The notes: generated by a model not told the origin, from the sequence alone. 64,000 nt of DNA from Escherichia coli (GCF_001677475.2 NZ_CP015229.1); one strand, 5' to 3'; counted from the stretch's first letter, positions 43,747 to 64,000 are shown. Translations and numbers: made by a program.

Positions 43747-43867
43747 GTCTGGATATCTATTATTGCCAGAATCGCAAAAATCCTCTGCGTTTTACGCTCT
43801 TTTTCCGCAACAGTCTGAAGCCCATAATCACCTCAGTTAACGAAAATAGCATTAAAAGAGGCATATT

Positions 43868-45582: not shown

Positions 45583-45771
45583 TTTTGCTCCTGTTGCAAA
45601 ATAGATGAGATATTTTGAATTTATTTGTCATTAAACCATCAGGATGCGTGATATGTCATCCGATTTAATGTTCTCAATAATGAGCAAATTTCTGACCGGT
45701 GTAAGCACTTGCTTACATAACAATATACAATTGCTCGTTGAAAGAGTGAGCTAAAATCCCTATAACAGTAG

Positions 45772-46623
<852 letters not shown>

Positions 46624-46699
46624 GGTATGTCAGGTCTGCCACAGGGCAGACCAACGTTTGGCGCTGCCCTTTTTAATCAAACAATAAAAGGACAGCGCA

Positions 46700-47470
46700 A
46701 TGACAACACAATCCCACCATGACCACGTAGAAAAGCAGTTTAGCTCTCAAGCCAGCGAATATCTGACCAGTACCGTACATGCATCCGGACGAGATTTACA
46801 GCGCCTGGCGGTGCGTCTGGCTGATTATCCTGATGCAAGTGTACTTGATATGGGCTGCGGAGCAGGGCATGCCAGCTTTGTTGCTGCGCAAAACGTGAGC
46901 GCGGTGGTGGCGTATGACTTATCTGCCCAAATGCTGGATGTCGTGGCACAAGCTGCCGAAGCCCGGCAACTGAAAAATATCACCACCCGCCAGGGTTATG
47001 CCGAAAGTCTGCCATTTGCCGATAACGCATTTGATATTGTTATCAGCCGTTATTCTGCCCATCACTGGCATGATGTTGGTGCAGCACTGCGTGAAGTGAA
47101 CCGGATATTGAAACCTGGCGGTAGGCTGATTGTGATGGACGTAATGTCTCCGGGCCACCCAGTGCGCGACATCTGGTTACAGACGGTAGAAGCATTACGC
47201 GATACCTCTCACGTACGAAACTACGCCAGCGGTGAGTGGTTGACGTTAATCAATGAAGCCAATCTGGTAGTTGATAATTTAATTACAGATAAGTTACCGC
47301 TGGAATTTTCTTCATGGGTCGTGAGAATGCGTACGCCAGAAGCGTTAGTAGACGCTATTCGCATTTACCAACAGAGCGCATCGACAGAGGTGAGAACGTA
47401 TTTTTCCTTGCAGAATGATGGCTCTTTCATCAGTGATATCATCATGGTAGAAGCACATAAAGCGGCATAA
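46700..47470 (+). CDS. yafE: Class I SAM-dependent methyltransferase YafE
   Basis: 256-aa ORF with SAM motif LDMGCGAGH and VISRYSAHHW; start codon choice uncertain. Confidence 0.8.
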   Translation: MTTQSHHDHVEKQFSSQASEYLTSTVHASGRDLQRLAVRLADYPDASVLDMGCGAGHASFVAAQNVSAVVAYDLSAQMLDVVAQAAEARQLKNITTRQGYAESLPFADNAFDIVISRYSAHHWHDVGAALREVNRILKPGGRLIVMDVMSPGHPVRDIWLQTVEALRDTSHVRNYASGEWLTLINEANLVVDNLITDKLPLEFSSWVVRMRTPEALVDAIRIYQQSASTEVRTYFSLQNDGSFISDIIMVEAHKAA

Positions 47471-47472
47471 AT

Positions 47473-47506
47473 AAAAAAGGCACCGGGGGAATCGGTGCCT
47501 TTTTAT
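47473..47506. terminator. Bidirectional terminator between yafE and mltD
   Basis: aaaaaaggcaccg-ggggaat-cggtgcctttttatt. Confidence 0.55.
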
Positions 47507-47517
47507 TATCTGGTTTG

Positions 47518-48876
47518 TCAGGAATCTGGCATGTTGTTGTTTTTCACAAACAACGTCAGCTTATCGCCTGGTTGCAGATTCGCAGTGTCGCTGTTCCAGC
47601 GCATCACATCTTTAATGTTCACGCCGTGGCGTTTAGCAATGCTTGAAAGCGAATCGCCTTTGCGCACACGATACGTAATGCTATCGCTGTTGTTTGCCAA
47701 CCGCTGTGCGCTACTACCTGCGCCAATCGTCAAGCTTTGGCCTGGCTTCAGCTTAGATCCGCGCAGTTTGTTCCACTGCTGCAAATCCTTGGTGCTAACG
47801 CCGAGACGTGAAGCGATACTTGAAAGCGTGTCGCCAGAGCGTACGGTGTAAACACGGCTGTTAAGCGGCGTATTGTCGGCAACCAGCGTCGACTGTACAG
47901 CAGCAATTTCGCCCGAAGCCAGAGATTCACGCAGTTGATCTGCATGCTTCTTTGGCACCATCACGTACTGCGGACCACTTGCGCCCAGCGTGGAGCCTTT
48001 CACGCCAGCGTTGAATGTCTTCAGCTTGCTGACGGAAATCCCCGCCATATCTGCAACCTTCGCCATTTCAACCGGGCTGCTCAGGTGCACACGCGCCAGA
48101 GCACGGCTTTCATCGGTCGTTGGCAGACGTACGCCATAACGCTTGCTGTTTTTGAGAATATCACTCAATGCCAGCATTTTAGGCACGTACTGCTTCGTTT
48201 CCTGCGGCAACGGTAACGACCAGAAGTCCGTGGATTTCCCACGCGCTTTGTTCGTTTTAATTGCCTTCATGACCCGACCTTCGCCGCTGTTATAAGCCGC
48301 TACGGTCAGAAGCCAGTCGCCGTCAAACATCTTGTTCAGACGCTGCATCATGTTCAGCGCGGCAGTTGTTGAAGCAACAACATCGCGACGCGCGTCATAA
48401 TTGCGGGTCTGTTTCAAACCATAATTGCGCCCCGTGCTCGGAATGATCTGCCAGATGCCTGCGGCATTGGCGCCAGACGTTGCGTGAGGATCAAAAGCGC
48501 TCTCCACTATGGGTAGTAGTACCAGTTCCATAGGCATGTTACGTTTTTTAACTTGCCCGGCTATCCAGTACATATACGGCTCTGCCCGTAAAGTTACATC
48601 GTGGAGATAGCTCTTATTGCGTAAATATTTCTGTTTCTGTTCGCGAATCCGGTCATTTTCCGGAATTCCCATCTTTAGCTCGTCGCCAATGAAAGCCCAC
48701 AAGTCACCATCTGGCGCGATAGACGTCCCATCGTCCATCCATCGTGCCTGACTTGTAAACTTTGCTGCTTCCCCTTGACCAGCTGCAGAAAGGCTCTGTG
48801 CGTGCTGTTGAACGTTGCCGGTACTCTGGCAACCCACGAGCAGGACAGAGGCGAGTAATATCGCTTTTGCCTTCAT
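47518..48876 (-). CDS. mltD: Membrane-bound lytic murein transglycosylase D (lipoprotein with C-terminal LysM repeats)
   Basis: 452-aa ORF MKAKAILLASVLLVGCQSTGN (lipobox LVGC); two LysM-like repeats (YTVRSGDTLSSIASRLGV, YRVRKGDSLSSIAKRHGV). Confidence 0.9.
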   Translation of the reverse strand: MKAKAILLASVLLVGCQSTGNVQQHAQSLSAAGQGEAAKFTSQARWMDDGTSIAPDGDLWAFIGDELKMGIPENDRIREQKQKYLRNKSYLHDVTLRAEPYMYWIAGQVKKRNMPMELVLLPIVESAFDPHATSGANAAGIWQIIPSTGRNYGLKQTRNYDARRDVVASTTAALNMMQRLNKMFDGDWLLTVAAYNSGEGRVMKAIKTNKARGKSTDFWSLPLPQETKQYVPKMLALSDILKNSKRYGVRLPTTDESRALARVHLSSPVEMAKVADMAGISVSKLKTFNAGVKGSTLGASGPQYVMVPKKHADQLRESLASGEIAAVQSTLVADNTPLNSRVYTVRSGDTLSSIASRLGVSTKDLQQWNKLRGSKLKPGQSLTIGAGSSAQRLANNSDSITYRVRKGDSLSSIAKRHGVNIKDVMRWNSDTANLQPGDKLTLFVKNNNMPDS

Positions 48877-48947
48877 GTGTGTGTCAATAGTTGCTTAAAA
48901 GACGACCGATCATAACGGCGAACGGAGCCGATGACAAGAAAGTTTTA

Positions 48948-49706
<759 letters not shown>

Positions 49707-49736
49707 TTACCTCTCAGTGTGAAACGGAAGGTTGTG

Positions 49737-50459
49737 ATGAAACCGGCAAGAGTCCCTCAAACTGTCGTGGCTCCTGATTGCTGGGGCGATTTGCCCTGGG
49801 GAGAGCTTTATCGCAAGGCGCTGGAGCGCCAGCTCAACCCGTGGTTCACTAAAATGTATGGTTTTCATCTGCTTAAGATTGGCAATTTAAGCGCAGAAAT
49901 CAATTGCGAAGCGTGCGCGGTTTCTCATCAAGTGAATGTTTCTGCGCAAGGAATGCCCGTCCAGGTGCAGGCGGACCCACTTCATCTTCCTTTTGCCGAT
50001 AAATCCGTTGATGTGTGTCTACTGGCACATACATTGCCGTGGTGCACCGATCCGCATCGTTTATTGCGTGAAGCCGATCGGGTATTGATTGATGATGGCT
50101 GGCTGGTGATTAGTGGCTTCAATCCCATAAGTTTAATGGGATTACGAAAACTTGTGCCGGTATTGCGCAAAACCTCGCCCTATAACAGCCGGATGTTTAC
50201 TCTGATGCGGCAGCTGGACTGGCTCTCTTTGTTGAATTTTGAAGTGCTACACGCCAGCCGTTTCCACGTTCTCCCGTGGAACAAACACGGTGGAAAACTA
50301 TTGAATGCGCATATTCCTGCGCTTGGTTGCTTACAACTTATTGTCGCCCGGAAACGGACTATTCCTTTAACGCTAAATCCGATGAAACAGAGTAAAAACA
50401 AGCCACGAATTCGCCAGGCGGTTGGAGCCACCCGGCAATGTCGTAAACCACAGGTTTAA
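49737..50459 (+). CDS. yafS: Methyltransferase-like protein YafS
   Basis: ORF-track entry 49719-50459 trimmed to ATG at 49737: [37 protein letters not shown]... Confidence 0.8.
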
Positions 50460-50923
50460 ACTTCGACTTGATAGCCCGTATCTTCCAGTGTGGGATTCAT
50501 CGCTGCGGCACGAGCCAGTTCATCGCAACGTTCGTTTTCCGGGTGTCCGGCATGGCCTTTAACCCATTCCCATTTGATTTGATGCTGCCCCAACGCAGCA
50601 TCAAGACGTTGCCAGAGATCGACATTTTTTACTGGTTTTTTGTCTGCTGTTTTCCAGCCACGTTTTTTCCAGTTATGGATCCACTGGGTGATACCCTGGC
50701 GGACATACTGGCTGTCGGTACTCAAAATGACTTCGCAATGTTCTTTTAACGCCTCCAGCGCGATAATAGCGGCCATCAACTCCATACGGTTGTTGGTGGT
50801 GCGGGTGTAGCCTGCGCTAAAGGTTTTCTCGCGTCCGCGATAGCGTAAAATAGCGCCGTAACCCCCAGGTCCAGGATTGCCCAGACACGAACCATCGGTG
50901 AAAATTTCTACCTGTTTAAGCAT
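50456..50923 (-). CDS. rnhA: Ribonuclease HI
   Basis: ORF-track entry 50456-50995 trimmed to ATG complement at 50921-50923: [49 protein letters not shown]... Confidence 0.95.
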
Positions 50924-50987
50924 CTCTGGTAGACTTCCTGTAATTGAATCGAACTGTAAAACGACAAGTCTGACATAAATGACCGCT

Positions 50988-51719
50988 ATGAGCACTGCAA
51001 TTACACGCCAGATCGTTCTCGATACCGAAACTACCGGTATGAACCAGATTGGTGCGCACTATGAAGGCCACAAGATCATTGAGATTGGTGCCGTTGAAGT
51101 GGTGAACCGTCGCCTGACGGGCAATAACTTCCATGTTTATCTCAAACCCGATCGGCTGGTGGATCCGGAAGCCTTTGGCGTACATGGTATTGCCGATGAA
51201 TTTTTGCTCGATAAGCCCACGTTTGCCGAGGTAGCCGATGAGTTCATGGACTATATTCGCGGCGCGGAGTTGGTGATCCATAACGCAGCGTTCGATATCG
51301 GCTTTATGGACTACGAGTTTTCGTTGCTTAAGCGCGATATTCCGAAGACCAATACCTTCTGTAAGATCACCGATAGCCTTGCGGTGGCGAGGAAAATGTT
51401 TCCCGGTAAGCGCAACAGCCTCGATGCGTTATGTGCCCGCTACGAAATAGATAACAGTAAACGAACGCTGCACGGGGCATTACTCGATGCCCAGATCCTT
51501 GCGGAAGTTTATCTGGCGATGACTGGTGGTCAAACGTCGATGGCTTTTGCGATGGAAGGAGAGACACAACAGCAACAAGGTGAAACAACAATTCAGCGCA
51601 TTGTGCGTCAGGCAAGTAAGTTACGCGTTGTTTTTGCGACAGATGAAGAGCTTGCGGCACATGAAGCCCGTCTCGATCTGGTGCAGAAAAAGGGCGGAAG
51701 CTGCCTCTGGCGGGCATAA
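50988..51719 (+). CDS. dnaQ: DNA polymerase III epsilon subunit (3'-5' proofreading exonuclease)
   Basis: ORF-track entry 50979-51719 trimmed to ATG at 50988: [39 protein letters not shown]...; divergent from rnhA. Confidence 0.95.
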
Positions 51720-51841
51720 ATACCTGTAAAAGGCGCTAAAAATAGCGACTTGGGCGATTTTTGCAGCAAACGATTCAAAAGATGAGAAAAACCGTTGACG
51801 AAGGGTGAGGCAATCCGTAATATTCGCCTCATTCCCAACGG

Positions 51842-51918
51842 AACACAACGCGGAGCGGTAGTTCAGTCGGTTAGAATACCTGCCTGTCACGCAGGGGGTC
51901 GCGGGTTCGAGTCCCGTC
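51842..51918 (+). tRNA. aspV: tRNA-Asp (anticodon GTC)
   Basis: Identical 77-nt sequence to aspU; located after dnaQ as in K-12. Confidence 0.95.
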
Positions 51919-51925
51919 CGTTCCG

Positions 51926-51966
51926 CCAATATTCAGAAAGCCCGAATCAGTAATGATTCGGGCTTT
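51926..51966 (+). terminator. aspV terminator
   Basis: gaaagcccgaatc-agtaat-gattcgggctttc followed by gtcgtttt. Confidence 0.65.
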
Positions 51967-52015
51967 CGTCGTTTTGGTGAAGCGAGAATTTTTCACTCCG
52001 CAAGTAAAACGAATA

Positions 52016-52055
52016 TGATTTAAAAAATGGCCAGATAATATAAATTCTGGCCACT
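52016..52055 (-). terminator. Probable terminator of the minus-strand T6SS operon (after tssA)
   Basis: On the minus strand: tggccag-aatttatatta-tctggcca followed by ttttttaaatc. Confidence 0.5.
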
Positions 52056-52059
52056 TCTG

Positions 52060-53106
52060 TTACTCCAGCGCATCCCATTTTTCCAGCAGTTCTACTGGAA
52101 TTTCATTTATTACCTCCGAGAAGCGTTTTCCGACCAGGCGTTCTGCCTGGCGCAGCAAAGGAATGGTCGGGCTGCTCGGTTCGCTGTGCTCAAACCAGCG
52201 ACGGATGACACGCAGGCGTTCCAGCGCGTCGTTCCGGTCGCGGATCTGCCGGGGTTCTGCGCCGGACATCGGTGATATTTCCTCCGCGATATGCACCGGT
52301 AGCGCAATCTGCTCTGATGATATCTCTTCAGTATGAACGATGGTGGTGCTCTCCGGCTGTTCAGCCACTGGTTGTGGCAGGATCTCCGGCGTGGTGGTCC
52401 GTATCGCTCCCGGCAACAGGGCCAGCAATTGTGTCAGACGGGATAGGTTCGGTGCCTGGTCATTCAGCGTTTCACGCGCATGGCGTTGCAGCCGCTCAGT
52501 GGTCTCTGCGGCCTGGCGAAAGGCATCCAGCGGCAGTGTGCCGCGCGCCTCCAGGTCGGCCAGTTGCTGGCGTACCGATTCTGGTGCCAGCGCATCCGCC
52601 GGGCGTGATGCAGACAGCGAACGCTCCACATCCCGTACCTGAAGGCGTATGGCAGCATTGTTTGACAGTGTAATGCCACGAATATCCGCTATTACGCCTT
52701 CATGGTCCAGCAACGCCGCCAGGGCGTTACTACGTGCCACTGCCGCCTCTTCGGCGGTGATATCTTCAGTCGCGAGCAGTTGAGGATGGATGGCGTTCGG
52801 GTACGTGGCGCACAACGTTTCCAGCAGCGCGAGCGCCTCCGCCAGTCCCCTGGCACCGGCCTGCTGGATACGGCAGCGCAGCAGGACAACCAGAATGCGG
52901 ATATCTTTGCTGCGCGTCAGCAGGCGGCAGGCATCCCGCTCAAGCTCCGCCCAGTTAATGGTTTCCGGCGTACTGACAAAATCGCCGTATTGCGCTTCTT
53001 CACGCGGTGCGGCGCGCGTGAACAGTAGCAGGTATTCCGGATCGTACTCCAGATCCGGGCCGCAGGGGCATTCTGCCGAAATTGGGTCAGACAGGGATGT
53101 ATCCAT
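52060..53106 (-). CDS. tssA: T6SS protein TssA (ImpA N-terminal domain family)
   Basis: 348-aa ORF MDTSLSDPISAECPCGPDLEYDPEYLLLFTRAAPREEAQYGDFVSTPETINWAELERDACRLLTRSKDIRILVVLL, the ImpA_N signature pattern. Confidence 0.8.
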   Translation of the reverse strand: MDTSLSDPISAECPCGPDLEYDPEYLLLFTRAAPREEAQYGDFVSTPETINWAELERDACRLLTRSKDIRILVVLLRCRIQQAGARGLAEALALLETLCATYPNAIHPQLLATEDITAEEAAVARSNALAALLDHEGVIADIRGITLSNNAAIRLQVRDVERSLSASRPADALAPESVRQQLADLEARGTLPLDAFRQAAETTERLQRHARETLNDQAPNLSRLTQLLALLPGAIRTTTPEILPQPVAEQPESTTIVHTEEISSEQIALPVHIAEEISPMSGAEPRQIRDRNDALERLRVIRRWFEHSEPSSPTIPLLRQAERLVGKRFSEVINEIPVELLEKWDALE

Positions 53107-53116
53107 TAAATTATCC

Positions 53117-54112
53117 TCAGTGCGCCAGGTAGTGTTCTGGTTCGAAAATCATGCCCGTCACCGGGTTTTCGTGCATGGCTTTACCCGCCCATGCGGTCCA
53201 GCCCAGTTGGTACGAACCACCGGTAACAGCCGGAGGGGCGGCGTGGGGCTTTAGCTGTAGCTCAATTTCCCAGCAGTATTCAAAACCGCTAAAGGAGCGG
53301 ACCAGTTCTGTCAGGACTGGCAGGTTATTGCCGCCAGGCAGAAAACGTCGGTAATCCTCCAGCGTCAGCGGGCCGATAACCAGCCGGAACTTATACTGCA
53401 TGTCCGGCACGGCCTGGCCGATGAGTGCACCGTTGCCAATAACGGAAGAGGGGGCTGGCATCCCCAGCCGGGTGATCTCATCGTCCGCCACGGCTATCCA
53501 GTGCAGGACATACTCCTGTATCCGGAAAGGTACACCGAAATAGTGCGCCAGCGTGGTGGCCAGACCGTCCGGATTGCGGGACTCACGCACCAGATGGGCC
53601 GATGCCGCCAGGCGAGCGTGATCCTGCAACGGGCTGTCGGCGCTCTCCCGCAAATCCTGCCCGCTGAGGCTGGCGATATAAAAGGCAAAACGGTCATGTT
53701 GCGGTTTATCCAGACCGCCCCCAGCGGACTGGGCGCTGCGCCATGCCTGGTAAAACTGCGTCAGCCAGCGGTGATGAAAAAGATCAGAAAAACGGGTTAG
53801 CGTCGGGTCTCTTCGGCTTTCAGTCCGGTTGTGCGCCAGTTCGGTGTAGTGCAGCGGCAGTGGACCGTTCGGCCCCCACAGCCCGAGACTGTACAAACTG
53901 ATATGCAGCCGCTCTTCCTGCCAGCTCACACTGGCGATTTCCCGTGGCGCAAAGGTCAGCGCGGGAGTTTGTCCGAGGCGAAATTTTTCCATCCGTGGTT
54001 GCCAGGTGTTGCCTGCCGGAACAGTACACAACTGCACATCCACGCGGCGCATCAGGTTCAGAAAACCGTAACGCCAGGGGGTTTCCTGCGCCTGAGTGAA
54101 ATCGTCGCTCAT
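53117..54112 (-). CDS. tssG: T6SS baseplate subunit TssG
   Basis: 331-aa ORF MSDDFTQAQETPWRYGFLNLMRRVDVQL..., immediately downstream of and 4-nt overlapping tssF. Confidence 0.8.
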   Translation of the reverse strand: MSDDFTQAQETPWRYGFLNLMRRVDVQLCTVPAGNTWQPRMEKFRLGQTPALTFAPREIASVSWQEERLHISLYSLGLWGPNGPLPLHYTELAHNRTESRRDPTLTRFSDLFHHRWLTQFYQAWRSAQSAGGGLDKPQHDRFAFYIASLSGQDLRESADSPLQDHARLAASAHLVRESRNPDGLATTLAHYFGVPFRIQEYVLHWIAVADDEITRLGMPAPSSVIGNGALIGQAVPDMQYKFRLVIGPLTLEDYRRFLPGGNNLPVLTELVRSFSGFEYCWEIELQLKPHAAPPAVTGGSYQLGWTAWAGKAMHENPVTGMIFEPEHYLAH

Positions 54113-55992
54113 ACGCTTCCCCGCTGTCCCGCCCTGGCAGGCCAGGTCATAATTTTGCCGCGCTGCATGCTGTGCAGCGTCATCTGCGAGAAGGTATTAA
54201 TGGAAACATGACGGGCGATATAGTGCTCCAACACCAGACCGAACAGATACGGACTGATACCGGAGAACCCCTCCTCATCCACGGTCAGTTCACAACTGAC
54301 GCCGCGCCCATAGACCAGCAGCCCGGAACCGGGCAGACGGCGGGTGACCGGGGTGGTGTTGCAGCCAATCAGGCTGCGCACCTGGCGCGACTGCGGACTG
54401 TCATGCGCCGGAATAAACAGGTTAAGCAGATCGCGCAGCGCCTGACCACCGGTACGGTGATCCAGATCGGCCAGCGGCAGATAGTTAAAGGATAACTGGC
54501 GGATCAACCGCCAGGCCATTTCACGTTCAGCCAGCGGAGGCTGCGGCGGACGCGGCGGACGGATAAGCCCCACGCCCGCCACCGGGATGGCCGCATCCAC
54601 GGTCAGATCGTCCCGTCCATTGCGGGCAATAAGACAGGGCAGATCGCGGTTGGTGACCATAGCCGTGATGGTGATATGGCGCAGATTTTCCGGGTATGGC
54701 GCTTCATACTGGTCAACCAGCGACAGGAACACTTCTGATCCTGTATAGGAGGTGCGGGTGCCATAGCGGCGGGCATTTTCCGACAACCGGCGCGGCTCCC
54801 GGCGCAGGGAAAAATAACGTCCGTGATTGCCTTCATCATTATTGCGGGTGTGGTAGAGCGGGCGAAAGGCCATCTTCCGTGTGGTGTCAGTTTCCAGCCC
54901 TTCCACTTCCTGGACCGAGAACACCTCATAATCCAGCGGATGGGTTCTGTCCACCACCAGATGCTGTTCCGTCGTGCTGTGCGTGACATCGATCCGGGCG
55001 GCGACTCGGGGAAACAGGTTGATAACCGGGGTACAGAACAGACTGAACTGTGCCGCGTTTGTCTGGTGGATCAGCCAGTCCGGCGGCAGGCGGTTCAGCA
55101 GGATAACAATCTCCGCCACTCCGCCTTCAATTTTCTGTAACCCGGCAGACAGGCCTGTCGGGGTGAAAAAAAAGAAGCGTTCCGGACAGGTAAAATATTC
55201 ATGTAGCAGGTTATGGCCGTGAAACACATTCCACGCCAGCGGCAACAGTCCCTGATCCGGATCCAGGCCTTCGTACATAACGGGCTGTTTCAGATTCACA
55301 TCCAGTGCGCCGTCAAAATGCCCCGGAATGCCAGCCAGGCTCGCGATGGCGCTGGTATGCAGTAGTTCGAACAGGTGTGAGGCCGTGCGCTCCTCGCCGC
55401 AGAGATAAAATGGTAGCTTGTTCAGCCCTGCAAGCTGACTGAACGTCAGTTCACCAAAGGTGCGCAGGGTAATACGCAGCGCACCAGCGACGTGAATGTT
55501 GGCTGGCAGGTAGCGGTGCAGGGCAGGCATATCCGGCGGCGCGGCGGTCAGGCGCACCTCTTCGATGGCAAGCGGCCACAGCGTCACATTCTGGCTGCTA
55601 CGAAACTGGCAGGCAGTACTTTCGCCTTCCGGAATGGCGGAAAAAAAGGCCGTGTTGCGCGGGACGGTGAATCCCTTCGCCAGATCGCCTTCTTCCGGAT
55701 CGGGATGAAGCTGCGCCACGCTCATTGAGGGCGTGGGTGTGACGTAATTGGGGCTGACCACTTCCAGCAGGCGCTGGGTGAAACGGGGGAATTCAGCGTC
55801 AATTTTTAGCTGCGTGCGGGCGGTCAGGAAGCTGAAGGCCTCGACCATTCGCTCCACATACGGATCGGCAATATCCGTTCCCTGCATACCCAGTCGGGCG
55901 GCGACTTTAGGATGACGGGCGGCAAATTCGGCTCCCGTTTCCCGCAGATAGCTCAGTTCGCGGTTGTAGTATTCCAGTAGCCGTGGATCCAT
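54109..55992 (-). CDS. tssF: T6SS baseplate subunit TssF
   Basis: 627-aa ORF with the characteristic TssF N-terminus MDPRLLEYYNRELSYLRETGAEFAARHPKVAARLGM. Confidence 0.88.
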   Translation of the reverse strand: MDPRLLEYYNRELSYLRETGAEFAARHPKVAARLGMQGTDIADPYVERMVEAFSFLTARTQLKIDAEFPRFTQRLLEVVSPNYVTPTPSMSVAQLHPDPEEGDLAKGFTVPRNTAFFSAIPEGESTACQFRSSQNVTLWPLAIEEVRLTAAPPDMPALHRYLPANIHVAGALRITLRTFGELTFSQLAGLNKLPFYLCGEERTASHLFELLHTSAIASLAGIPGHFDGALDVNLKQPVMYEGLDPDQGLLPLAWNVFHGHNLLHEYFTCPERFFFFTPTGLSAGLQKIEGGVAEIVILLNRLPPDWLIHQTNAAQFSLFCTPVINLFPRVAARIDVTHSTTEQHLVVDRTHPLDYEVFSVQEVEGLETDTTRKMAFRPLYHTRNNDEGNHGRYFSLRREPRRLSENARRYGTRTSYTGSEVFLSLVDQYEAPYPENLRHITITAMVTNRDLPCLIARNGRDDLTVDAAIPVAGVGLIRPPRPPQPPLAEREMAWRLIRQLSFNYLPLADLDHRTGGQALRDLLNLFIPAHDSPQSRQVRSLIGCNTTPVTRRLPGSGLLVYGRGVSCELTVDEEGFSGISPYLFGLVLEHYIARHVSINTFSQMTLHSMQRGKIMTWPARAGQRGSV

Positions 55993-56007
55993 CGGTTTCT
56001 CTCTGAA

Positions 56008-56502
56008 TTAAAAAAACGTAATGCGGCTCTGTTCCATATCCAGCGCGCTGCGTACCCGGAATGCCATCGGGTAGGGCTGCGTGAGGATCTCGCCGCGAAT
56101 TTCAAACTGTAATGTGTTATGGCCGCTCTGGTGGCGCTCATCCTGAAGTGGGATGATTTGCAGGGGGGACGCTTTCAGCCGGGGTTCAAACCGGATGATG
56201 GTACGCAAAATGGCCCTGTGAATATCGTCCCACTTGTGTTCATACAGAAAGCTGCCCGCCAGTGGCGGCAGGCCGTAGTTCAGTACGGACGCTGCCGCGT
56301 GCGGATAACGTGCAGCATCAATATCATCTTCATGGCTGACGGTGTTGAGCAGAAATGACAAATCCCGGCGAATGATCTCCTTAAGCTGAACCGGGCTGAC
56401 GCTGATATCGTGGTCGCGTTTCTGGTTTGGGGCATCATCACACAGGCGGTCAAACAGCGTGGGCAGCAGGTGATTGCCCGGACGCTGGCGGGAAGCGCTC
56501 AC
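56008..56502 (-). CDS. tssE: T6SS baseplate protein TssE (gp25-like)
   Basis: 164-aa ORF LLPTLFDRLCDDAP...VQLKEIIRRDLSFLLNT...YGLPPLAG, typical TssE pattern. Confidence 0.8.
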   Translation of the reverse strand: MSASRQRPGNHLLPTLFDRLCDDAPNQKRDHDISVSPVQLKEIIRRDLSFLLNTVSHEDDIDAARYPHAAASVLNYGLPPLAGSFLYEHKWDDIHRAILRTIIRFEPRLKASPLQIIPLQDERHQSGHNTLQFEIRGEILTQPYPMAFRVRSALDMEQSRITFF

Positions 56503-57329
56503 GCGTCGCTTCCTTCAGCGGTGTTAAAGGTACAGGTGGACAAATCCAGCAGGCTGATATCGCCGTGACCGGTGAGCCACACCCTCTGACCCAGCGCCTG
56601 TACCAGAGTCTCTCCCGGCCCGTCCTGCCAGACCGTTTTCCGGCACAGACGCAGGGAGTCGGCAGCCTTTTCAGAGCCGCTGTAGCGGGAAAACAGCCAG
56701 GCACTGTGTGTGTCGCCATTATTCAGTGTGACGTTGACGGGTTTCCAGATCAAATCGGTCAGATGCGCAGGCCGCGGCGATTTTAGCGAACAGATTTGTG
56801 AAAACGGCAACCAGATATATACTCCGCCCGCGATGAGTTCGAGTACCGGACCGGTACGGGAGTCGCTGTCGCTAATCCAGTCAAATGCGCCGCCATTCCA
56901 CTGTCCTGCAGTATCTGTTATGGCCTCAAGTGCGCGGCTGCGGTGGGCGTCAGCTTCCTGCGCTTCACCACGGGCGTTACAGGCGAGGGCGGTCAGCAGA
57001 TCCTCCATCCAGGCGGGCGGCGGGAGAATAAAATCGGGCCGCTGTTCTCCCTGAAAGCAGGCGTGGCGGTATATCTCACAGCGGATCAGCTCGCCAAATA
57101 CCTGCGCTTCGCGGGTATAATTTGCGTCCATCCGGGCGCATAGCTGGATCTGTTGCAGTGCCCGCGACCAGTCGCCTGCCACGCACAATAACTGAAACAG
57201 GCTGTGGCGGCGGGAGGCCTGCGCCGGGGGCATCCTGACCTGCTGCTCTGCCATCTGAATGCCCTCCGCCACGGAATAATCCCGCAGCAGCGCCGACAGG
57301 GTAGCCGGTAGCTCGTTATTGTTTGTCAT
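56499..57329 (-). CDS. tagJ: T6SS accessory protein, TagJ/ImpE-like (tentative)
   Basis: 276-aa ORF in operon between fha-like gene and tssE; size and overall pattern resemble ImpE-family proteins; assignment by recollection, not alignment. Confidence 0.5.
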   Translation of the reverse strand: MTNNNELPATLSALLRDYSVAEGIQMAEQQVRMPPAQASRRHSLFQLLCVAGDWSRALQQIQLCARMDANYTREAQVFGELIRCEIYRHACFQGEQRPDFILPPPAWMEDLLTALACNARGEAQEADAHRSRALEAITDTAGQWNGGAFDWISDSDSRTGPVLELIAGGVYIWLPFSQICSLKSPRPAHLTDLIWKPVNVTLNNGDTHSAWLFSRYSGSEKAADSLRLCRKTVWQDGPGETLVQALGQRVWLTGHGDISLLDLSTCTFNTAEGSDA

Positions 57330-58230
57330 GAGATATCTCTCCGTGTTGTGCCGGGTTTATCCGATAATGGCTGTCAATGCCAATGATGCGATGCTCTTTG
57401 CGTGTCAGGTCGGGTAGAACGGTGTTATGCGCTGTTTCCGGTGCGCATTCCGGGGATAGCAGGTGCAGGATATCTGGGGGCGTCTTTTCGGCAGGCCAGG
57501 CGGTTTCCCCTTCGCCGGTGGCGTCCAGGACATCGAGAATAGCGTCAATGCTTAACCCGCCAGTGACCATATCCTGCAATGTCTCGGCTTCAGTGACCAG
57601 ATCACGCAATGAATCCAGATCCTGTGAGGAGGGCTCTTCGTTAAAGGGAAAAGGATCAGCATGGCGATGAAGATCTTGTTCAGGAGATAACAACGCCTCG
57701 CGGTATTCCTGATAAAGTCGAGTCAGGGCATTTTCTTTTTTAGCATCTTCTCCAGTGGAGGAGGCTCCATGAACAGGAATGATATCGAATGGATTTTGTG
57801 ATGTCAGATGCTGCTGCCTGAACCAATCCAGATCCAGATATTCGGTTATTGTTTCCGACATGGTGGCAGTCTGCGATGTCGTTTTTACTGCGCTCAGGTC
57901 CGGAGATGATGGATTGCCGTGCACAAGGCACCATGAAGATAACCCCCATTCTATCAGGTCGCCTTCATTCAGACGCATACGGTGATGAGGTTCCACAATC
58001 TGGTCGTTTACCGTACAGCAATATTCGGTAGACTGATTGATAATCCACCATGCTTCTTCGTGGCGGGTCAGACTGAGGGCAATCTTTACATCATCATTCA
58101 CCTCAAAAACAGGAATCCAGGGTGAGGTAACGGTGAAGATAATTTGGGTTCCTTCAGTCGCGTAAATTGTGTTATCGGCGATCCCGTGCGCCTGTATTTT
58201 TTGGAGTCCCCACGTAATATTTGGTTTCAT
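57316..58230 (-). CDS. T6SS-associated protein with N-terminal FHA-like domain (TagH/Fha-like, tentative)
   Basis: 304-aa ORF; first gene of the minus-strand operon; N-terminal roughly 100 aa end in ...TVNDQIVEPHHRMRLNEGDLIEWG, resembling the C-terminal strand pattern of FHA domains; acidic Ser/Thr-rich C-terminal half. Confidence 0.45.
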   Translation of the reverse strand: MKPNITWGLQKIQAHGIADNTIYATEGTQIIFTVTSPWIPVFEVNDDVKIALSLTRHEEAWWIINQSTEYCCTVNDQIVEPHHRMRLNEGDLIEWGLSSWCLVHGNPSSPDLSAVKTTSQTATMSETITEYLDLDWFRQQHLTSQNPFDIIPVHGASSTGEDAKKENALTRLYQEYREALLSPEQDLHRHADPFPFNEEPSSQDLDSLRDLVTEAETLQDMVTGGLSIDAILDVLDATGEGETAWPAEKTPPDILHLLSPECAPETAHNTVLPDLTRKEHRIIGIDSHYRINPAQHGEISHDKQ

Positions 58231-58562
58231 TGTGTATCACTGTGTAGAATGTTTCTTTCAAAAGAATAAGTTTTCTAAATTTTTAGATAAGCAATGCTGA
58301 TTAATTTACTTTATCAATATAAGTTTTCGCGGAAATATATAGTGGCGATTTTCAATTTAATATATTCATGGTATGTATGAAATTGGCTTGCTCTATTGAA
58401 TATCACCATGAAAAAGATACTACCTGCTATATTACATTGTGTTCTGTGATATGCATCATTGTTTCATTCGGCCTTTTTGATAATTCTATTAATTAGAAGT
58501 TTTAATCGATACAGTTATGTTTATGTATCATTTATATGTTCTTACATCATTAGGTGTAACAG
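58231..58562. promoter_or_regulatory. AT-rich divergent promoter/control region between the two T6SS operons
   Basis: 332-nt non-coding region, visibly AT-rich with multiple A/T tracts, between divergently transcribed fha-like gene and clpV. Confidence 0.5.
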
Positions 58563-61196
58563 ATGGACACTCCTGTTTCGCGCAGTGCACTGTATGGAAA
58601 GCTAACCAAATCTTTGTTTAGATCTTTGGAATCTGCGACGACGTTCTGTAAATTACGCGCTAATCCTTATGTCGAACTGACGCATTGGTTGCATCAGTTA
58701 ATACAACAACCAGAGAATGACATTCACAATGTGCTTCGACATTATCAAATAACATCTGCTGATGTTGAGAAGGCGTTAATTCAGCAATTGAATATATTGC
58801 CTGCCGGAGCGAGTGTAATTAACGATTTTTCCCATCATATCGATCTTTCTGTTGAAAAAGCCTGGATGTTGGCAAGTATCCGCTTTGGCGATCAAAAAAT
58901 TCGTAGTGGATGGTTATTACTTGCCTGGTTAACCACGCCAGAATTGTGTCGGGTGTTAAAAAATATTTGTGCGCCATTGGCAGAGCTGCCGGTAGATGAA
59001 CTATTAGATATTCTTCCGTCTTTAATCACTTCATCTCCTGAATTAACAGAAATGCCTTATGACTGCTCGGATTTAAATTCTGCAGTACCGGGGGAAGCTA
59101 GCCAGGTCTTTGCCGGCGAATCAACCGGAAGCAAATCCGCGCTGGCGAAATACTGCCAGGACATGACTGCGCTGGCCCGTGAAGGCAATATCGATCCGGT
59201 CACCGGTCGCGAACACGAGATCCGTACTATGACGGATATTCTGCTGCGCCGTCGCCAGAACAACCCGCTACTGACCGGCGAAGCGGGAGTCGGGAAAACG
59301 GCAGTGGTGGAAGGATTCGCGCTGGCGATTGCCGGGGGGGAAGTACCGCCTTCACTGCGTAACGTGCGGTTGCTGTCACTGGATGTTGGAGCGCTGCTGG
59401 CTGGGGCGTCCATGAAGGGTGAATTTGAATCCCGCCTGAAAGCGTTGCTAGAAGAGGCCGCGCGCTCGCCGCAGCCGGTAATCCTTTTTGTTGATGAAGT
59501 TCACACGCTGGTGGGCGCTGGTGGTACATCCGGTACGGGGGATGCTGCCAACCTGCTGAAACCGGCGCTGGCGCGTGGCACCCTGCGCACCATCGGCGCA
59601 ACCACCTGGAGCGAGTACAAACGCCATATCGAAAAGGATCCGGCGCTGACTCGGCGTTTTCAGGTATTGCAGGTTGCTGAGCCGGAAGAGGTTGCGGCTG
59701 TTGAGATGGTACGCGGGTTAGTCACCACGCTTGAAAAACACCATGACGTGCTGATCCTTGATGAGGCCGTGCGCGCCGCCGTACAGCTTTCTCACCGTTA
59801 CATTCCGGCCCGGCAACTACCGGATAAGGCCATCAGCCTGCTGGATACGGCGGCGGCCCGTGTAGCGCTGTCGCTGCATACCCCGCCTGCGAGAGTCCAG
59901 TATCTGCGCCAGCAGCTCAACGCTGCCGAACTGGAGCAGGTGTTGTTATTAAAGCAGGAAAAAATGGGTATCCGCTCGGAGCGGGGCGATGTACTGACGG
60001 CGCGGATTATATCGCTTAATGCCGATCTTTCTGACACCGAAGCGCGGTGGCAGCAGGAACTGGAGTTGGTTCGCAGTTTACAGGAGCAACGCGGCGCAGC
60101 GCCTGGCGAGCGCGACGAAATCACTCTACAACAGGCAGAAACGGCATTAAGAGGCTGGCAGGGTGAAAACCCCGTCGTGTACCCGGAAGTCAGTGCAACC
60201 GTGGTGGCAGAGATTGTCTCCGACTGGACCGGTATTCCCGCCGGACGGATGGTGAAAGATGAAGCCAGTCAGATACTGGAATTGCCCACCCGTTTGGCGC
60301 AGCGTGTTACCGGGCAGATGGATGCGTTGGCGCAGATTGGCGAGCGTATCCAGACCGCGCGGGCGGGTTTAGGTGACCCGCGTAAGCCTGTGGGTGTCTT
60401 TTTGCTGGCCGGGCCGTCCGGAGTAGGCAAGACTGAGACCGCGCTGGCACTGGTAGAAGCAATCTATGGCGGTGAACAGAATCTGATCACCATCAACATG
60501 AGCGAGTATCAGGAGTCTCACACAGTCTCCACTCTGAAAGGCGCGCCGCCCGGCTACGTCGGTTATGGCGAAGGCGGCGTGTTGACGGAAGCGGTACGCC
60601 GCCATCCCTGGAGCGTGGTATTGCTGGATGAAATTGAAAAAGCCCATCACGACGTCCACGAGCTGTTCTTCCAGGTGTTTGATAAGGGGGCGATGGAAGA
60701 TGGCGAAGGTGTCCACATCGATTTCAAAAATACCACGCTGTTGTTGACGACTAACGCGGGGGCGGAACTTATCAGCCAGCTCTGTGAGGATCCGGCGCTG
60801 ATGCCCGATTCGGCAGGGTTAAAAGAGGCGTTAATGCCGGAGTTACGTAAACACTTCCCGGCGGCTTTCCTGGGGCGTGTGACGGTTATTCCTTATTTAC
60901 CGCTGGATGAGACCGCGCGTGGTGTTATTGCCCGCCTGCATCTTGGCAGATTGATGGCTCGGATGGCGGAGCAGCATGGCGTTTCACTGGTGTATGGCGA
61001 TGAACTGATTACGCATATTGTGTCGCGCTGCCCGATGCACGAGACCGGCGCTCGTTTGCTCATCGGCTATATCGAACAACATATCCTCCCACAACTGTCC
61101 CGTTATTGGTTGCAGGCGATGACAGAGAAAACGGCCATCACGCAAATCCGCATTCGTGTTGATGAGGATGAACAGATTATTTTTGAAACGGATTAA
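58563..61196 (+). CDS. clpV: T6SS AAA+ ATPase ClpV (TssH)
   Basis: 877-aa ORF with two AAA+ modules: Walker A GEAGVGKTAV and GPSGVGKTETA, Clp N-domain-like N-terminus. Confidence 0.92.
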   Translation: MDTPVSRSALYGKLTKSLFRSLESATTFCKLRANPYVELTHWLHQLIQQPENDIHNVLRHYQITSADVEKALIQQLNILPAGASVINDFSHHIDLSVEKAWMLASIRFGDQKIRSGWLLLAWLTTPELCRVLKNICAPLAELPVDELLDILPSLITSSPELTEMPYDCSDLNSAVPGEASQVFAGESTGSKSALAKYCQDMTALAREGNIDPVTGREHEIRTMTDILLRRRQNNPLLTGEAGVGKTAVVEGFALAIAGGEVPPSLRNVRLLSLDVGALLAGASMKGEFESRLKALLEEAARSPQPVILFVDEVHTLVGAGGTSGTGDAANLLKPALARGTLRTIGATTWSEYKRHIEKDPALTRRFQVLQVAEPEEVAAVEMVRGLVTTLEKHHDVLILDEAVRAAVQLSHRYIPARQLPDKAISLLDTAAARVALSLHTPPARVQYLRQQLNAAELEQVLLLKQEKMGIRSERGDVLTARIISLNADLSDTEARWQQELELVRSLQEQRGAAPGERDEITLQQAETALRGWQGENPVVYPEVSATVVAEIVSDWTGIPAGRMVKDEASQILELPTRLAQRVTGQMDALAQIGERIQTARAGLGDPRKPVGVFLLAGPSGVGKTETALALVEAIYGGEQNLITINMSEYQESHTVSTLKGAPPGYVGYGEGGVLTEAVRRHPWSVVLLDEIEKAHHDVHELFFQVFDKGAMEDGEGVHIDFKNTTLLLTTNAGAELISQLCEDPALMPDSAGLKEALMPELRKHFPAAFLGRVTVIPYLPLDETARGVIARLHLGRLMARMAEQHGVSLVYGDELITHIVSRCPMHETGARLLIGYIEQHILPQLSRYWLQAMTEKTAITQIRIRVDEDEQIIFETD

Positions 61197-61386
61197 TGGA
61201 GCATCCTTATGGCAAAAGAATTAAGTGGCGCACTGTGGTTCAGTCGCTTTCCTGGAAGTTCTTCCACTAATGATTTGCAGGGGACTTTTCGTGCATCGGT
61301 AGATAATTTTTTGCGCGCGCATTGGTAATGCGCGTGCAAGGGTCAGTATCTCTGCAACATATCGCCCTCCCGCCAGAGCATATCTC

Positions 61387-61773
61387 ATGCACTGGTCATG
61401 GTTGATTGCTCATGAAATCGTTCAGGCAAAAAACGTCCCGGCGATGGAGGGGGTGGATATTGAGTGGGTTCACCCGACTGAGCAAGCCTCGCTTGAAGCG
61501 GCGCAGGCTATGGTTACGGCCTATGGTATTAATAATCTGAATGTCGCGCCTGCACTGAGCTCCAACCATACACGCGGTACTGCGATAGATATGAATATCA
61601 GTTGGAGCGGAACATTAACAATTGCGGGGAGCAATGGTCAGAATGTTGCAATTAATACACTACCTCGAACCGGAATGAATGCCCAGCTTCAGGCGGTAGG
61701 TCTGGGTTACGGCGTCAGAAAATTTGTTGGCGGCAATACAGATATACCTCACTGGTCAATTGATGGACATTAA
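61387..61773 (+). CDS. Candidate T6SS effector: small zinc metallopeptidase of the VanY/peptidase M15 (LAS) type, predicted peptidoglycan peptidase
   Basis: 128-aa ORF, no signal peptide, no Cys; exact VanY-type motif S59-N-H61-T-R-G64-T-A66-I-D68 (SxHxxGxAxD) at nt 61561-61590 and C-terminal His in IPHWSIDGH; located between clpV and tssB. Confidence 0.5.
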   Translation: MHWSWLIAHEIVQAKNVPAMEGVDIEWVHPTEQASLEAAQAMVTAYGINNLNVAPALSSNHTRGTAIDMNISWSGTLTIAGSNGQNVAINTLPRTGMNAQLQAVGLGYGVRKFVGGNTDIPHWSIDGH

Positions 61774-61775
61774 GT

Positions 61776-62066
61776 ATGACATTTCGTTATCCGATGTTGT
61801 TGACATTCCTGTTAATGATGTTCGCTTTCTGTGTTCAGGGGGAACCGCCTTTACCACAGGATGTGCAGCATTTTCTGAGTAATGCGGAAATGTGCCAGCA
61901 TCTTGCTGGTGAATGGGACAGTTCTTTACCAAAGAAGGATAAAAGAGACATCGAAAAGGGGGTTGATACCTGGTGTCCTCCGGCGAAGAAATCACTCCCT
62001 GTGCTGCGGGAAAAGTACAAAGAAAACAAAGAGATTATAAAAATACTCTCTGCGTATGATTTTTAA
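61776..62066 (+). CDS. Candidate periplasmic immunity protein for the upstream peptidase
   Basis: 96-aa ORF starting 2 nt after the peptidase stop; N-terminal Sec-type signal peptide MTFRYPMLLTFLLMMFAFCVQG; two Cys in mature part; Lys/Glu-rich C-terminus. Confidence 0.45.
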   Translation: MTFRYPMLLTFLLMMFAFCVQGEPPLPQDVQHFLSNAEMCQHLAGEWDSSLPKKDKRDIEKGVDTWCPPAKKSLPVLREKYKENKEIIKILSAYDF

Positions 62067-62127
62067 ACTGTACCGTCGGGCCACTCTCCAGGTGGTCGTC
62101 GGCTGACTGATAAGGAAATGAAGGATT

Positions 62128-62673
62128 ATGGCTATCAACAACAGCGCGCAGAAGTTTATTGCCCGCAACCGCGCGCCCCGCGTGCAGATTGAGTATGACG
62201 TTGAGATTTACGGCTCCGAGAAAAAAATCGAACTGCCGTTTGTCATGGCGGTGCTGGCCGATCTGGCTGGTAAACCACGCGAAGAGCTGCCACCGGTCAC
62301 CGATCGTAAATTCCTTGATATTGATATCGATAACTTCAACGAGCGGATGAAAGCCATTGCGCCGCGCGTGGCGTTTGCTGTCCCCAATACGCTGACGGGC
62401 GAAGGGCAGTTAATGGTCGATATCACGCTGGAGAATATGGACGATTTTTCGCCTGCGCAGATTGCCCGTAAGGTGGATGCCCTGAACCAGCTGCTGGAAG
62501 CGCGTACTCAGCTTGCCAACCTACAAACGTATATGGATGGTAAAGCGGGAGCAGAAAATCTTATCAACAAACTATTACAAGACCCTACGTTACTGAAAGC
62601 TCTGGCTAGTGCGCCAAAACCTGTCGCTCAACAGGAAAGTGTCTTATCAGGTGAAACGGGAACAGCAGACTAA
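62128..62673 (+). CDS. tssB: T6SS contractile sheath small subunit TssB (VipA)
   Basis: 181-aa ORF MAINNSAQKFIARNRAPRVQIEYDVEIYGSEKKIELPFVMAVLADLAGKP..., classic VipA pattern. Confidence 0.9.
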   Translation: MAINNSAQKFIARNRAPRVQIEYDVEIYGSEKKIELPFVMAVLADLAGKPREELPPVTDRKFLDIDIDNFNERMKAIAPRVAFAVPNTLTGEGQLMVDITLENMDDFSPAQIARKVDALNQLLEARTQLANLQTYMDGKAGAENLINKLLQDPTLLKALASAPKPVAQQESVLSGETGTAD

Positions 62674-62697
62674 CTGCGATTTTATTAAGGAACTTCC

Positions 62698-64000
62698 ATG
62701 GTAAACGATACTCTTCTGGCGACTGGCGAACTCTCTGCTGCGCAAACCACTGCCTATCAGGACACTGAATTTGATTCGCTCTTGGATAAAGCCTTCCGTC
62801 CCAAGACACCTCAGGCAGCAAAGGCTGTTGAGGCAGCAGTTCAGACGCTGGCCCAACAGGCTTTGACAAATACCGTCACCGTCAGTGACGACGCTTATAA
62901 AAGTATTGCTGCGATTATTGAGCAGATCGATTTCAAATTAACTGAGCAGATCAAACTAATCCTGAGTCATCCGGAATTTCAGAAACTGGAGTCCTCCTGG
63001 CGTGGGATGGAACATTTGGTTTACAACACTGAAACCGATGAAAAATTAAAAATCCGTTTTATGAATCTTTCAAAGGATGAATTGCGGAAAAATATGAAGC
63101 GTTACAAAGGGATCGCCTGGGATCAAAGCCCCATGTTCAAAAAGCTTTATGAAGCTGAATATGGACAGTTAGGCGGAGAACCTTACGGTTGTATCATTGC
63201 GGATTATTATTTTGATCACACGCCACCGGATGTAGATCTGCTCGGCTCCATTGCCAAAGTGGCAGCCTCAGCCCATGCGCCGTTTATTGCTGGGGCCTCT
63301 CCGTCAGTGTTGCAGATGGACTCCTGGCAGGAACTGGCTAACCCGCGTGATCTGACCAAAATTGTGACCCAAAACCTCGAATACGCACCGTGGAACTCGC
63401 TGCGAAAAAGTGAGGATTCTCGCTACATTGGCCTGACGATGCCACGTTTTCTCTCCCGTTTGCCTTATGGTGCGAAAACAAACCCTGTCGATGAGTTTGA
63501 TTTTGAAGAAGATGCGGATGGCGCAGATCACAGCAAATATGTCTGGAGCAATGCCGCCTATGCAATGGGTGTAAATATCAACCGCTCTTTCAAACATTAC
63601 GGTTGGTGTACGTTGATCCGTGGTGTTGAATCTGGTGGCGCGGTGGAAAATCTGCCCTGTCATACCTTCCCGACCGATGACGGCGGCGTGGATATGAAAT
63701 GCCCGACAGAAATTGCCATCTCTGACCGTCGTGAAGCTGAACTGGCGAAAAATGGTTTTATCCCACTTATCCACCGCAAAAACTCTGATTACGCCGCCTT
63801 TATTGGCGCGCAGTCTCTACAAAAACCGCAGGAGTATTACGATCCGGACGCTACGGCCAACGCCAATCTCTCTGTTCGTTTGCCATATCTTTTCGCCTGT
63901 TCACGGTTTGCGCACTTCCTCAAATGTATCGTGCGCGACAAGATCGGCTCGTTCAAAGAGCGTGAAGATATGCAGCGCTGGCTCAATGAGTGGATCATGA
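62698..64000 (+). CDS. tssC: T6SS contractile sheath large subunit TssC (VipB), 5' partial, continues past window end
   Basis: ATG at 62698 with SD-like aagg upstream; translation MVNDTLLATGELSAAQTTAYQDTEFDSLLDKAFRPKTPQAAKAVE...; no stop in window so absent from ORF track. Confidence 0.9.
   Translation, partial: MVNDTLLATGELSAAQTTAYQDTEFDSLLDKAFRPKTPQAAKAVEAAVQTLAQQALTNTVTVSDDAYKSIAAIIEQIDFKLTEQIKLILSHPEFQKLESSWRGMEHLVYNTETDEKLKIRFMNLSKDELRKNMKRYKGIAWDQSPMFKKLYEAEYGQLGGEPYGCIIADYYFDHTPPDVDLLGSIAKVAASAHAPFIAGASPSVLQMDSWQELANPRDLTKIVTQNLEYAPWNSLRKSEDSRYIGLTMPRFLSRLPYGAKTNPVDEFDFEEDADGADHSKYVWSNAAYAMGVNINRSFKHYGWCTLIRGVESGGAVENLPCHTFPTDDGGVDMKCPTEIAISDRREAELAKNGFIPLIHRKNSDYAAFIGAQSLQKPQEYYDPDATANANLSVRLPYLFACSRFAHFLKCIVRDKIGSFKEREDMQRWLNEWIM

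Follow-up and report, generated by a model that had tools for sequence, protein, structure and literature searches.

A type VI secretion cluster of subclass i3 beside aspV in Escherichia coli, probably an old resident of the site rather than a recent insertion

We analysed a stretch of 64,000 nt from Escherichia coli (NZ_CP015229.1; hereafter the window, with positions counted from its first letter) in which a type VI secretion system (T6SS) adjoins the tRNA-Asp gene aspV. It is probable that positions 51975-64000 hold the tRNA-proximal half of a T6SS of subclass i3, with a LAS/M15-fold effector and its immunity gene as cargo, and that the locus is an old resident which most E. coli have lost or replaced. 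A preliminary description of the window had proposed that a T6SS island was inserted directly after aspV and replaced the K-12 gene content of the site. The observation is confirmed: tssA, tssG, tssF, tssE, tagJ and tagK on the minus strand abut the tRNA gene and are followed, on the plus strand, by tssH/clpV, a small gene pair, tssB and the 5' part of tssC (Table 1). The interpretation is supported in part, and it is insertion with replacement that finds no support. The gene assignments were essentially right, as searches with NCBIfam and Pfam profiles place the open reading frames (ORFs) in the Tss families, with scores for TssG, TssF, TssE, TssH and TssB all above the NCBIfam curated cut-offs. 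Sheath (TssB/TssC), TssE, TssF and TssG with TssA, and ClpV/TssH are all found within the window, which places the cluster among the T6SS-i. The ORF that had been called FHA-like is indeed a T6SS gene, but its identity is TagK and its match to FHA is weak.

We assign the cluster to subclass i3 because the solved proteins closest to TssB, to TagJ and to the N-domain of ClpV all belong to the H1-T6SS of Pseudomonas aeruginosa (HsiB1, HsiE1 and ClpV1, respectively). With TssB, HsiB1 reaches 259.6 bits, while TssB/VipA-type sheath chains from other solved systems stay at 37-46 bits. By these scores against structure chains, used here in place of a tree, the sheath and the ClpV N-domain are nearest to the i3 references, and TagJ (ImpE/HsiE1) is present. 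Judged from its sequence, the cluster therefore belongs with the P. aeruginosa H1-T6SS, the T6SS of pathogenicity island 6 of Salmonella (SPI-6) and the primary Enterobacter cluster. It is not of type i1, the usual occupant of aspV in enterohaemorrhagic (EHEC), extraintestinal pathogenic (ExPEC) and enteroaggregative (EAEC) E. coli. The preliminary description had thus recognised a T6SS at aspV and missed its i3, SPI-6-like subclass. The top matches for TssB, TagJ and the ClpV N-domain (PDB 4UQW-4UQZ) presumably stem from work on TagJ and TssB.

The resemblance to SPI-6 extends to the site and the gene order (loci L017 and L019). Both have mltD-gloB-yafS-rnhA-dnaQ-tRNA-Asp-tssA in the same orientation, and both continue in the order tssA-G-F-E-tagJ-tagK / tssH-tssB-tssC ... 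hcp, tae4-tai4, hcp, tssJKL, tssM, tagF, with candidate peptidoglycan-hydrolase cargo in the same variable slots. Protein identities between SPI-6 and the window range from 56 to 95% (TssB 95, TssC 93, TssF 90, TssH 84, TagK 56). For the part of the island beyond position 64000 we used the E. coli strain VCSW7, whose copy of the block shows 98.9% identity; its Tae4 scores 314 bits with about 80% identity to PDB 4J30/4HFF, and the exact solved Tae4 sequence was found on a contig with SPI-6 gene content. The systems also differ. On the one Salmonella contig studied, tssH is followed by tssB across a 100-bp gap with no effector-immunity pair, whereas E. coli relatives carry a full effector of 182 or 187 aa. 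Annotation of the VCSW7 island shows neither saf nor tcf, the fimbrial operons of SPI-6, and the host is E. coli, where i3 is rare. The H1-T6SS shares with the window a short TssA of the ImpA_N type; its TagQRST/PpkA/PppA/Fha phosphorylation module, however, is not annotated in the VCSW7 island, which has TagK instead. Gene order and effector set differ between the H1 locus and the E. coli island as well.

The layout dnaQ - tRNA-Asp - tssA...tagK / tssH...tssB-tssC is found in Escherichia sp. MOD1-EC7003, in 'E. coli' E69 and in Escherichia sp. E1V33, and the same dnaQ-aspV-T6SS arrangement occurs in Citrobacter amalonaticus and on one Salmonella contig. A scan of species-representative genomes seeded with TagK gave only 5 loci, since TagK evolves fast; the Salmonella contig was reached through the exact Tae4 sequence of the PDB alignment. 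We then compared synonymous divergence (dS, Nei-Gojobori) between nine T6SS genes and 4-5 flanking genes. Median dS for flank and T6SS was 1.28 and 1.15 relative to Salmonella and 1.26 and 1.14 relative to Citrobacter (values above 1 being near saturation), 0.12-0.23 and 0.28-0.54 relative to other Escherichia lineages, and 0.031 and 0.017 relative to VCSW7. The core T6SS proteins are 84-95% identical, compared with 78-93% for the flank proteins. The simplest reading of these sequences is that the locus predates the split of Escherichia, Citrobacter and Salmonella and has since been lost or replaced in most E. coli. It does not look like a recent integrase-mediated insertion. The direction implied by an insertion that replaced K-12 content is probably wrong, given the same arrangement in other genera, the flank-like dS and the nature of the K-12 content, which is itself a remnant.

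As the preliminary description stated, the K-12 genes yafT, ykfM, yafU and yafF are absent from the window, and the homology to K-12, like that to O157 Sakai, ends 6 nt past the tRNA. Yet the aspV-yafV interval of K-12 shares its left end (aspV and yafT) with the i1 island of Sakai at 99% identity over 1,061 bp, together with a second piece, an ISAs1 fragment near the right end of that island. Because of these two matches, the K-12 interval is the collapsed remnant of an i1 T6SS island, and not a native state displaced by the i3 cluster. In the comparison of K-12 (L008 1932-4420) with Sakai (L009), the yafT and yafF regions match the two ends of the i1 island; for the stretch of about 1.1 kb with ykfM and yafU there is no match in the Sakai island or in the i3 island. 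The i1 island (EHEC OI#7, Ec042-0210-0226 of EAEC 042, pathogenicity island PAI I of LF82) occupies the same aspV-yafV interval and also ends with vgrG, Rhs and ISAs1 beside yafV. Its T6SS is of an unrelated subclass: the Sakai island and the tRNA-proximal 30 kb of the VCSW7 island have only three short DNA matches, of 68-72% identity. At the distal ends, i1 and i3 islands have one stretch of 1,289 bp in common (94% identity), over the ISAs1 element beside yafV. In the i1 island yafT comes directly after the tRNA and the native aspV terminator is replaced. The i1 island is common in E. coli, whereas the i3 cluster is found in around 2% of the complete genomes.

Among 5,426 complete E. coli genomes, 115 contain at least 80% of the block 51930-64000, at up to 99.1% identity, and K-12 lacks it. 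Hence, the block is not universal in the species, which the preliminary description had named as a possible objection. Real homology, at 90% identity or more, extends to about 177 genomes, and a further 313 match only some 74 bp of a different clpV. The dnaQ-aspV-tssA junction is present in 78 genomes, and in several of these all that remains is part of tssA, joined to vgrG or Rhs genes. GF3-3, EC21Z-063, MB20 and BY68, for example, carry the junction and only the first 874-3,554 bases of the island, followed by vgrG- or Rhs-type genes. Such genomes seem to have undergone deletions inside the same island. A survey from 2025, of about 131,000 genomes, describes the subclasses i1, i2 and i4b in E. 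coli and limited its screen to those three, and a study of enterotoxigenic E. coli mentions in passing one 'almost intact type i3 system'. We are evenly divided on the broader claim that E. coli has a fourth T6SS subclass, i3, invisible to a survey restricted to i1, i2 and i4b; that it was the ancestral occupant of aspV, with i1 and the K-12 remnants arriving later; and that its cargo represents a widespread family of LAS-fold toxins with an immunity protein.

The core genes that the window lacks (hcp, tssJ, tssK, tssL, tssM, vgrG) had been presumed to lie downstream, and in the relatives VCSW7 and M18 they do, together with Rhs. In VCSW7 the island continues with tae4-tai4, hcp, tssJ, tssK, tssL, tlde1, tssM, tagF and a glucosaminidase/Tgi2PP pair, and its distal part consists of a truncated vgrG, a DcrB-related gene, an Rhs toxin and an ISAs1 pseudogene, after which comes yafV. 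All components are named in the RefSeq pipeline annotation. The vgrG gene is truncated in both VCSW7 and M18. HCP5S3_I2 has insertion sequence (IS) elements in tagK and beside clpV and an internal stop in hcp.

The preliminary description had noted a cargo pair, and there are indeed two genes between clpV and tssB, of which the first is frameshifted in the window. An extra A at 61321 leads to a stop at 61326-61328 after 39 codons. It lies in the GC-rich run GCGCGCGC-A-TTGG, is missing from four relatives, among them another Escherichia species, and may be either a true mutation or an error of sequencing. The intact effector has 182 or 187 aa in VCSW7, HCP5S3_I2, M18 and Escherichia sp. MOD1-EC7003. 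Two Escherichia lineages have fragments of it, Citrobacter has kept the immunity gene without it, and it is absent from the Salmonella contig. In a published set of 60 Salmonella genomes, 18 (30%) have a remnant ORF of 32 aa resembling an L-Ala-D-Glu endopeptidase between tssH and tssB (PMC10469887). Sequence profiles did not identify the effector: the 182-aa protein has nothing significant in Pfam (best Peptidase_M15_4, E 0.11), the 128-aa remnant ORF of the window has no match in NCBIfam, PDB sequences give only chance matches, and the best PHROGs hit has an E value of 0.31. A search of a library of representative sequences gave 896 homologues, in which the effector is mostly the C-terminal domain of a longer protein; in some, phospholipase, subtilisin, trypsin-like or lipase domains are present as well. 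Across 32 aligned members, R52, H115, D122, D173 and H176 are invariant. The resulting motif, H-x6-D ... D-x2-H, is the pattern of VanX-type zinc peptidases, plus a conserved Arg. The AlphaFold model has a mean pLDDT of 95.8 and its best Foldseek match is the L-Ala-D-Glu peptidase Ply500 (E 5e-4). The effector is accordingly predicted, from its model and motif, to be a zinc peptidoglycan peptidase of the LAS/M15 fold. It resembles the known LAS/M15 peptidases (Ply500, LysB4, VanY/VanX, LdcB, ChiX) in predicted fold, motif and conserved Arg. It differs from them in giving no significant sequence match in Pfam, NCBIfam, PHROGs or PDB chains, and in its context, that of a toxin with an immunity partner rather than of an endolysin or resistance enzyme. 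The M18 effector (L010 17148-17711) is full-length, with Asn in place of the family-invariant D122, the predicted zinc ligand (GTAINM where the family has GTAIDM), and may lack catalytic activity.

The second gene of the pair encodes 96 aa with a signal-peptide-like N-terminus and is intact. On unrelated metagenome contigs, ORFs homologous to it follow homologues of the effector (E 8e-22 and 1e-10), and one such module of effector and small ORF is preceded by a PAAR gene. The 96-aa protein is thus a candidate for the periplasmic immunity partner of the effector. A match to the thiol-disulfide oxidoreductase StoA was rejected, with 28.6 bits against a cut-off of 210 and no CxxC motif.

Could the block instead be a recently acquired island, integrated at the 3' end of tRNA-Asp and displacing the content of the aspV-yafV interval? 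We consider this unlikely, but several observations speak for it and weigh against an old resident. The block adjoins a tRNA gene, its G+C content rises to 0.59 across tssA-tagJ from 0.486 in the flank, an excess that is unexplained if the locus is very old, and it is present in around 2% of the genomes; such composition and distribution are classic signs of foreign DNA. The preliminary description had mentioned aspV as a T6SS site, and the literature on E. coli and Salmonella documents it (SPI-6 and SPI-20 in Salmonella; the i1 island of LF82, EHEC and EAEC 042 in E. coli) and calls it a hot spot of horizontal acquisition. A clean empty site exists in CE10 and M18, where only 98 bp separate aspV from yafV, and can be read as the state before insertion. 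In M18 and EC9, the two other E. coli carriers inspected, the island lies after aspU, the tRNA-Asp gene that ends rrnH, 8 kb upstream of aspV, and their aspV-yafV interval is empty. There it stands behind fragments of integrase (tyrosine recombinase) genes, an IS3 element and higA, and ends in an ISAs1 abutting a truncated dkgB (L010 1-8000, L012; L020). Because of this layout, the block has moved at least once; the matches of around 95% identity that were listed, all of which start at window position 52062, may share it. The dS comparison with Salmonella and Citrobacter is a soft test, being close to saturation and relying on 4-5 flank genes, and within Escherichia the T6SS dS is about 2.3 times that of the flank, which could reflect recombination with divergent lineages. 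Against a recent arrival stands the lack of the usual marks of integration. The preliminary description had reported neither integrase nor direct repeat at the tRNA-proximal boundary, and this holds for the window and for the whole VCSW7 island: no integrase ORF was found in the window (among ORFs or with NCBIfam) or in the complete VCSW7 island, and a search for the tRNA 3' end with up to 3 mismatches gave no match besides the two genuine tRNA-Asp genes, be it in the window, which stops short of the island's far boundary, in VCSW7 or in M18. Of the features of a tRNA-linked integrative island, deviant composition and patchy distribution are present, and integrase and direct repeat were not found. 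Escherichia clades, Citrobacter and Salmonella have the block at the same position and in the same gene order, and across genera the T6SS dS follows that of the flank, without the excess similarity expected of a recent transfer. Relative to VCSW7, island and flank are about equally close.

An old resident may still work or be in decay, and we regard as possible, though doubtful, that the cluster of this strain is a relic that no longer fires. The frameshifted effector, the lesions of HCP5S3_I2, VCSW7 and M18, the genomes reduced to a tssA fragment beside vgrG or Rhs genes, and the fragmentary or missing effector in other lineages are all consistent with decay. However, each of the nine structural and accessory genes that can be seen in the window has its full length and agrees with its family model from end to end, and the ratio of nonsynonymous to synonymous divergence (dN/dS) is about 0.06 for tssF, 0.07 for tssH and 0.02 for tssC, which points to purifying selection on the core genes. 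Moreover, the loss of one cargo effector leaves a T6SS functional. The effector itself might be no toxin at all, and serve as a housekeeping accessory that remodels peptidoglycan. TagX of Acinetobacter, reportedly a peptidoglycan hydrolase similar to VanY, whose gene belongs to a T6SS cluster and which is needed for T6SS biogenesis, offers a precedent, and the gene sits between the core genes clpV and tssB. We find this very improbable: the LAS-fold protein has, by its sequence, neither signal peptide nor membrane anchor, it is followed by a small exported protein whose homologues travel with those of the effector, one homologue comes after a PAAR gene, and many larger proteins with lipase or protease domains carry this domain as their C-terminal module. 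It also appears dispensable, being frameshifted, fragmentary or absent where the core genes are intact. All this agrees with an effector that is dispensable cargo and whose immunity gene has been kept, and not with an assembly factor of the TagX kind.

From the named families, we would expect the system to work as follows. TssE, TssF and TssG, with TssK encoded downstream, would build the baseplate, and TssA would prime the polymerisation of the TssB/TssC sheath around the Hcp tube. Contraction of the sheath would fire a VgrG/PAAR-Rhs spike with its cargo (Tae4, Tlde1 and the LAS peptidase) into neighbouring bacteria, and ClpV, aided by the binding of TagJ to TssB, would disassemble and recycle the contracted sheath. 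The LAS/M15 effector, to go by its model, would be made in the cytoplasm and cut the peptide stems of peptidoglycan in the periplasm of the prey, the exported 96-aa protein shielding the producing cell and its kin. The +1 frameshift would inactivate the effector in this strain, where the immunity gene alone is intact. The divergent region between the two operons is presumed to hold promoters or regulatory sites; the promoter scan gave nothing above chance there. H-NS silences SPI-6, and by analogy a similar silencing of this 332-bp region of 27.4% G+C is plausible.

Systems of this kind are well known, though rare in E. coli; the present one offers no new mechanism and leaves the general understanding of T6SSs unchanged. 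What interest it has comes from the evolutionary reading and from an effector family that has no name. A position next to a tRNA gene, a high G+C content and a patchy distribution make recent insertion a tempting conclusion, which is here corrected: to all appearances the locus is a weapon inherited from long ago, and most E. coli have since dropped it or exchanged it, in the same place, for a different T6SS. Surveys that use the three textbook types of E. coli T6SS would miss a fourth, present whole or as a remnant in roughly 3% of the complete genomes. The toxin-immunity family comprises about 900 representative clusters, has no Pfam or NCBIfam model and is experimentally uncharacterised.

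Table 1. Features of the window from dnaQ to its end, with the evidence for each
Feature	Position	Strand	Evidence
dnaQ, last backbone gene before the tRNA	50988-51719	+	intact ORF, 99-100% identity to E. coli dnaQ; annotated as dnaQ in syntenic records
tRNA-Asp(GTC), aspV	51852-51928	+	ARAGORN; Rfam RF00005, 67.7 bits
aspV terminator hairpin, backbone DNA	51936-51967	+	14-bp stem, then T-rich tail; shared with empty-site CE10 and M18, up to 51974
island-specific left end	51975-52059	-	homology to CE10 and M18 stops at 51974
tssA-like, short ImpA_N protein, 348 aa	52060-53106	-	TIGR03363 146.9 bits, under the 160.85 cut-off; Pfam ImpA_N E 1.6e-29
tssG, baseplate	53117-54112	-	TIGR03347 333.6 bits, full-length match
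tssF, baseplate	54109-55992	-	TIGR03359 618.1 bits
tssE, baseplate, gp25-like	56008-56502	-	TIGR03357 65.6 bits
tagJ (ImpE), accessory protein typical of the H1/SPI-6 class	56499-57329	-	Pfam ImpE E 1.2e-40; HsiE1 170 bits
tagK	57316-58230	-	NF033418 T6SS_TagK 553.5 bits; weak Pfam FHA match, E 0.0024, residues 54-96
divergent intergenic region between the operons, AT-rich	58231-58562	.	332 bp, 27.4% G+C
tssH/clpV, sheath-recycling AAA+ ATPase	58563-61196	+	TIGR03345 1215.3 bits, cut-off 884.95; ClpV1 N-domain 136 bits
pseudogene, predicted LAS/M15-fold peptidoglycan peptidase effector	61209-61773	+	128-aa ORF 61387-61773 is what remains, out of frame
candidate periplasmic immunity protein, 96 aa	61776-62066	+	intact; signal-peptide-like N-terminus; homologues trail effector homologues
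tssB, small sheath subunit	62128-62673	+	TIGR03358 190.3 bits; HsiB1 259.6 bits
tssC, large sheath subunit, cut by the window end	62698-64000	+	434 codons, no stop; 99.8% identical to VCSW7 tssC

The left boundary of the block can be placed with the help of the empty sites, as the window matches both CE10 and M18 through the tRNA and the next 46 nt. The block had been said to begin about 50 nt past the aspV terminator. The first gene has its stop codon at 52060, but the island DNA starts already at 51975, 7 nt past the hairpin. Read directly from the sequence, the 85 island-specific bp contain a hairpin at 52029-52052 followed by a run of T on the minus strand (52022-52027), likely the terminator of the tssA-side operon; its 10-nt loop is beyond the range of the terminator scan used. 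That consensus scan for promoters and terminators gave counts no higher than in shuffled controls, the aspV terminator being its sole informative match, and a repeat search over 51800-64000 gave only short pairs at chance level. ARAGORN also called a 94-nt tRNA-His within tssF (54233-54326, minus strand), and made the same call in L002; it has no Rfam support and is a false positive.

Up to aspV the window is collinear with K-12, as described before: the rrnH operon, dkgB, yafC, yafD, mltD, gloB, yafS, rnhA and dnaQ follow in K-12 order. An 8-kb query from this backbone was covered to at least 80% in 5,414 of the 5,426 complete genomes. The highest identity over 43800-51850 among 5,424 complete E. 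coli genomes is 98.8%, none reaching 99%. The source lineage is apparently without a close relative among complete genomes, and the nearest junction matches are isolates of bat, soil and pig origin. The genes aspU (43629-43705) and aspV lie in direct orientation, 8.2 kb apart, and share an identical 23-nt 3' end. The pair is a possible substrate for the relocation between aspU and aspV seen in other strains; simple recombination between the two genes does not yield the arrangement of M18 and EC9. A few kb past yafV, VCSW7 (L007 1-10837) and M18 (L012 32107-45001) carry a complete second flagellar cluster of the lateral, Flag-2 type, a position at which K-12 has only the lfhA and lafU pseudogenes.

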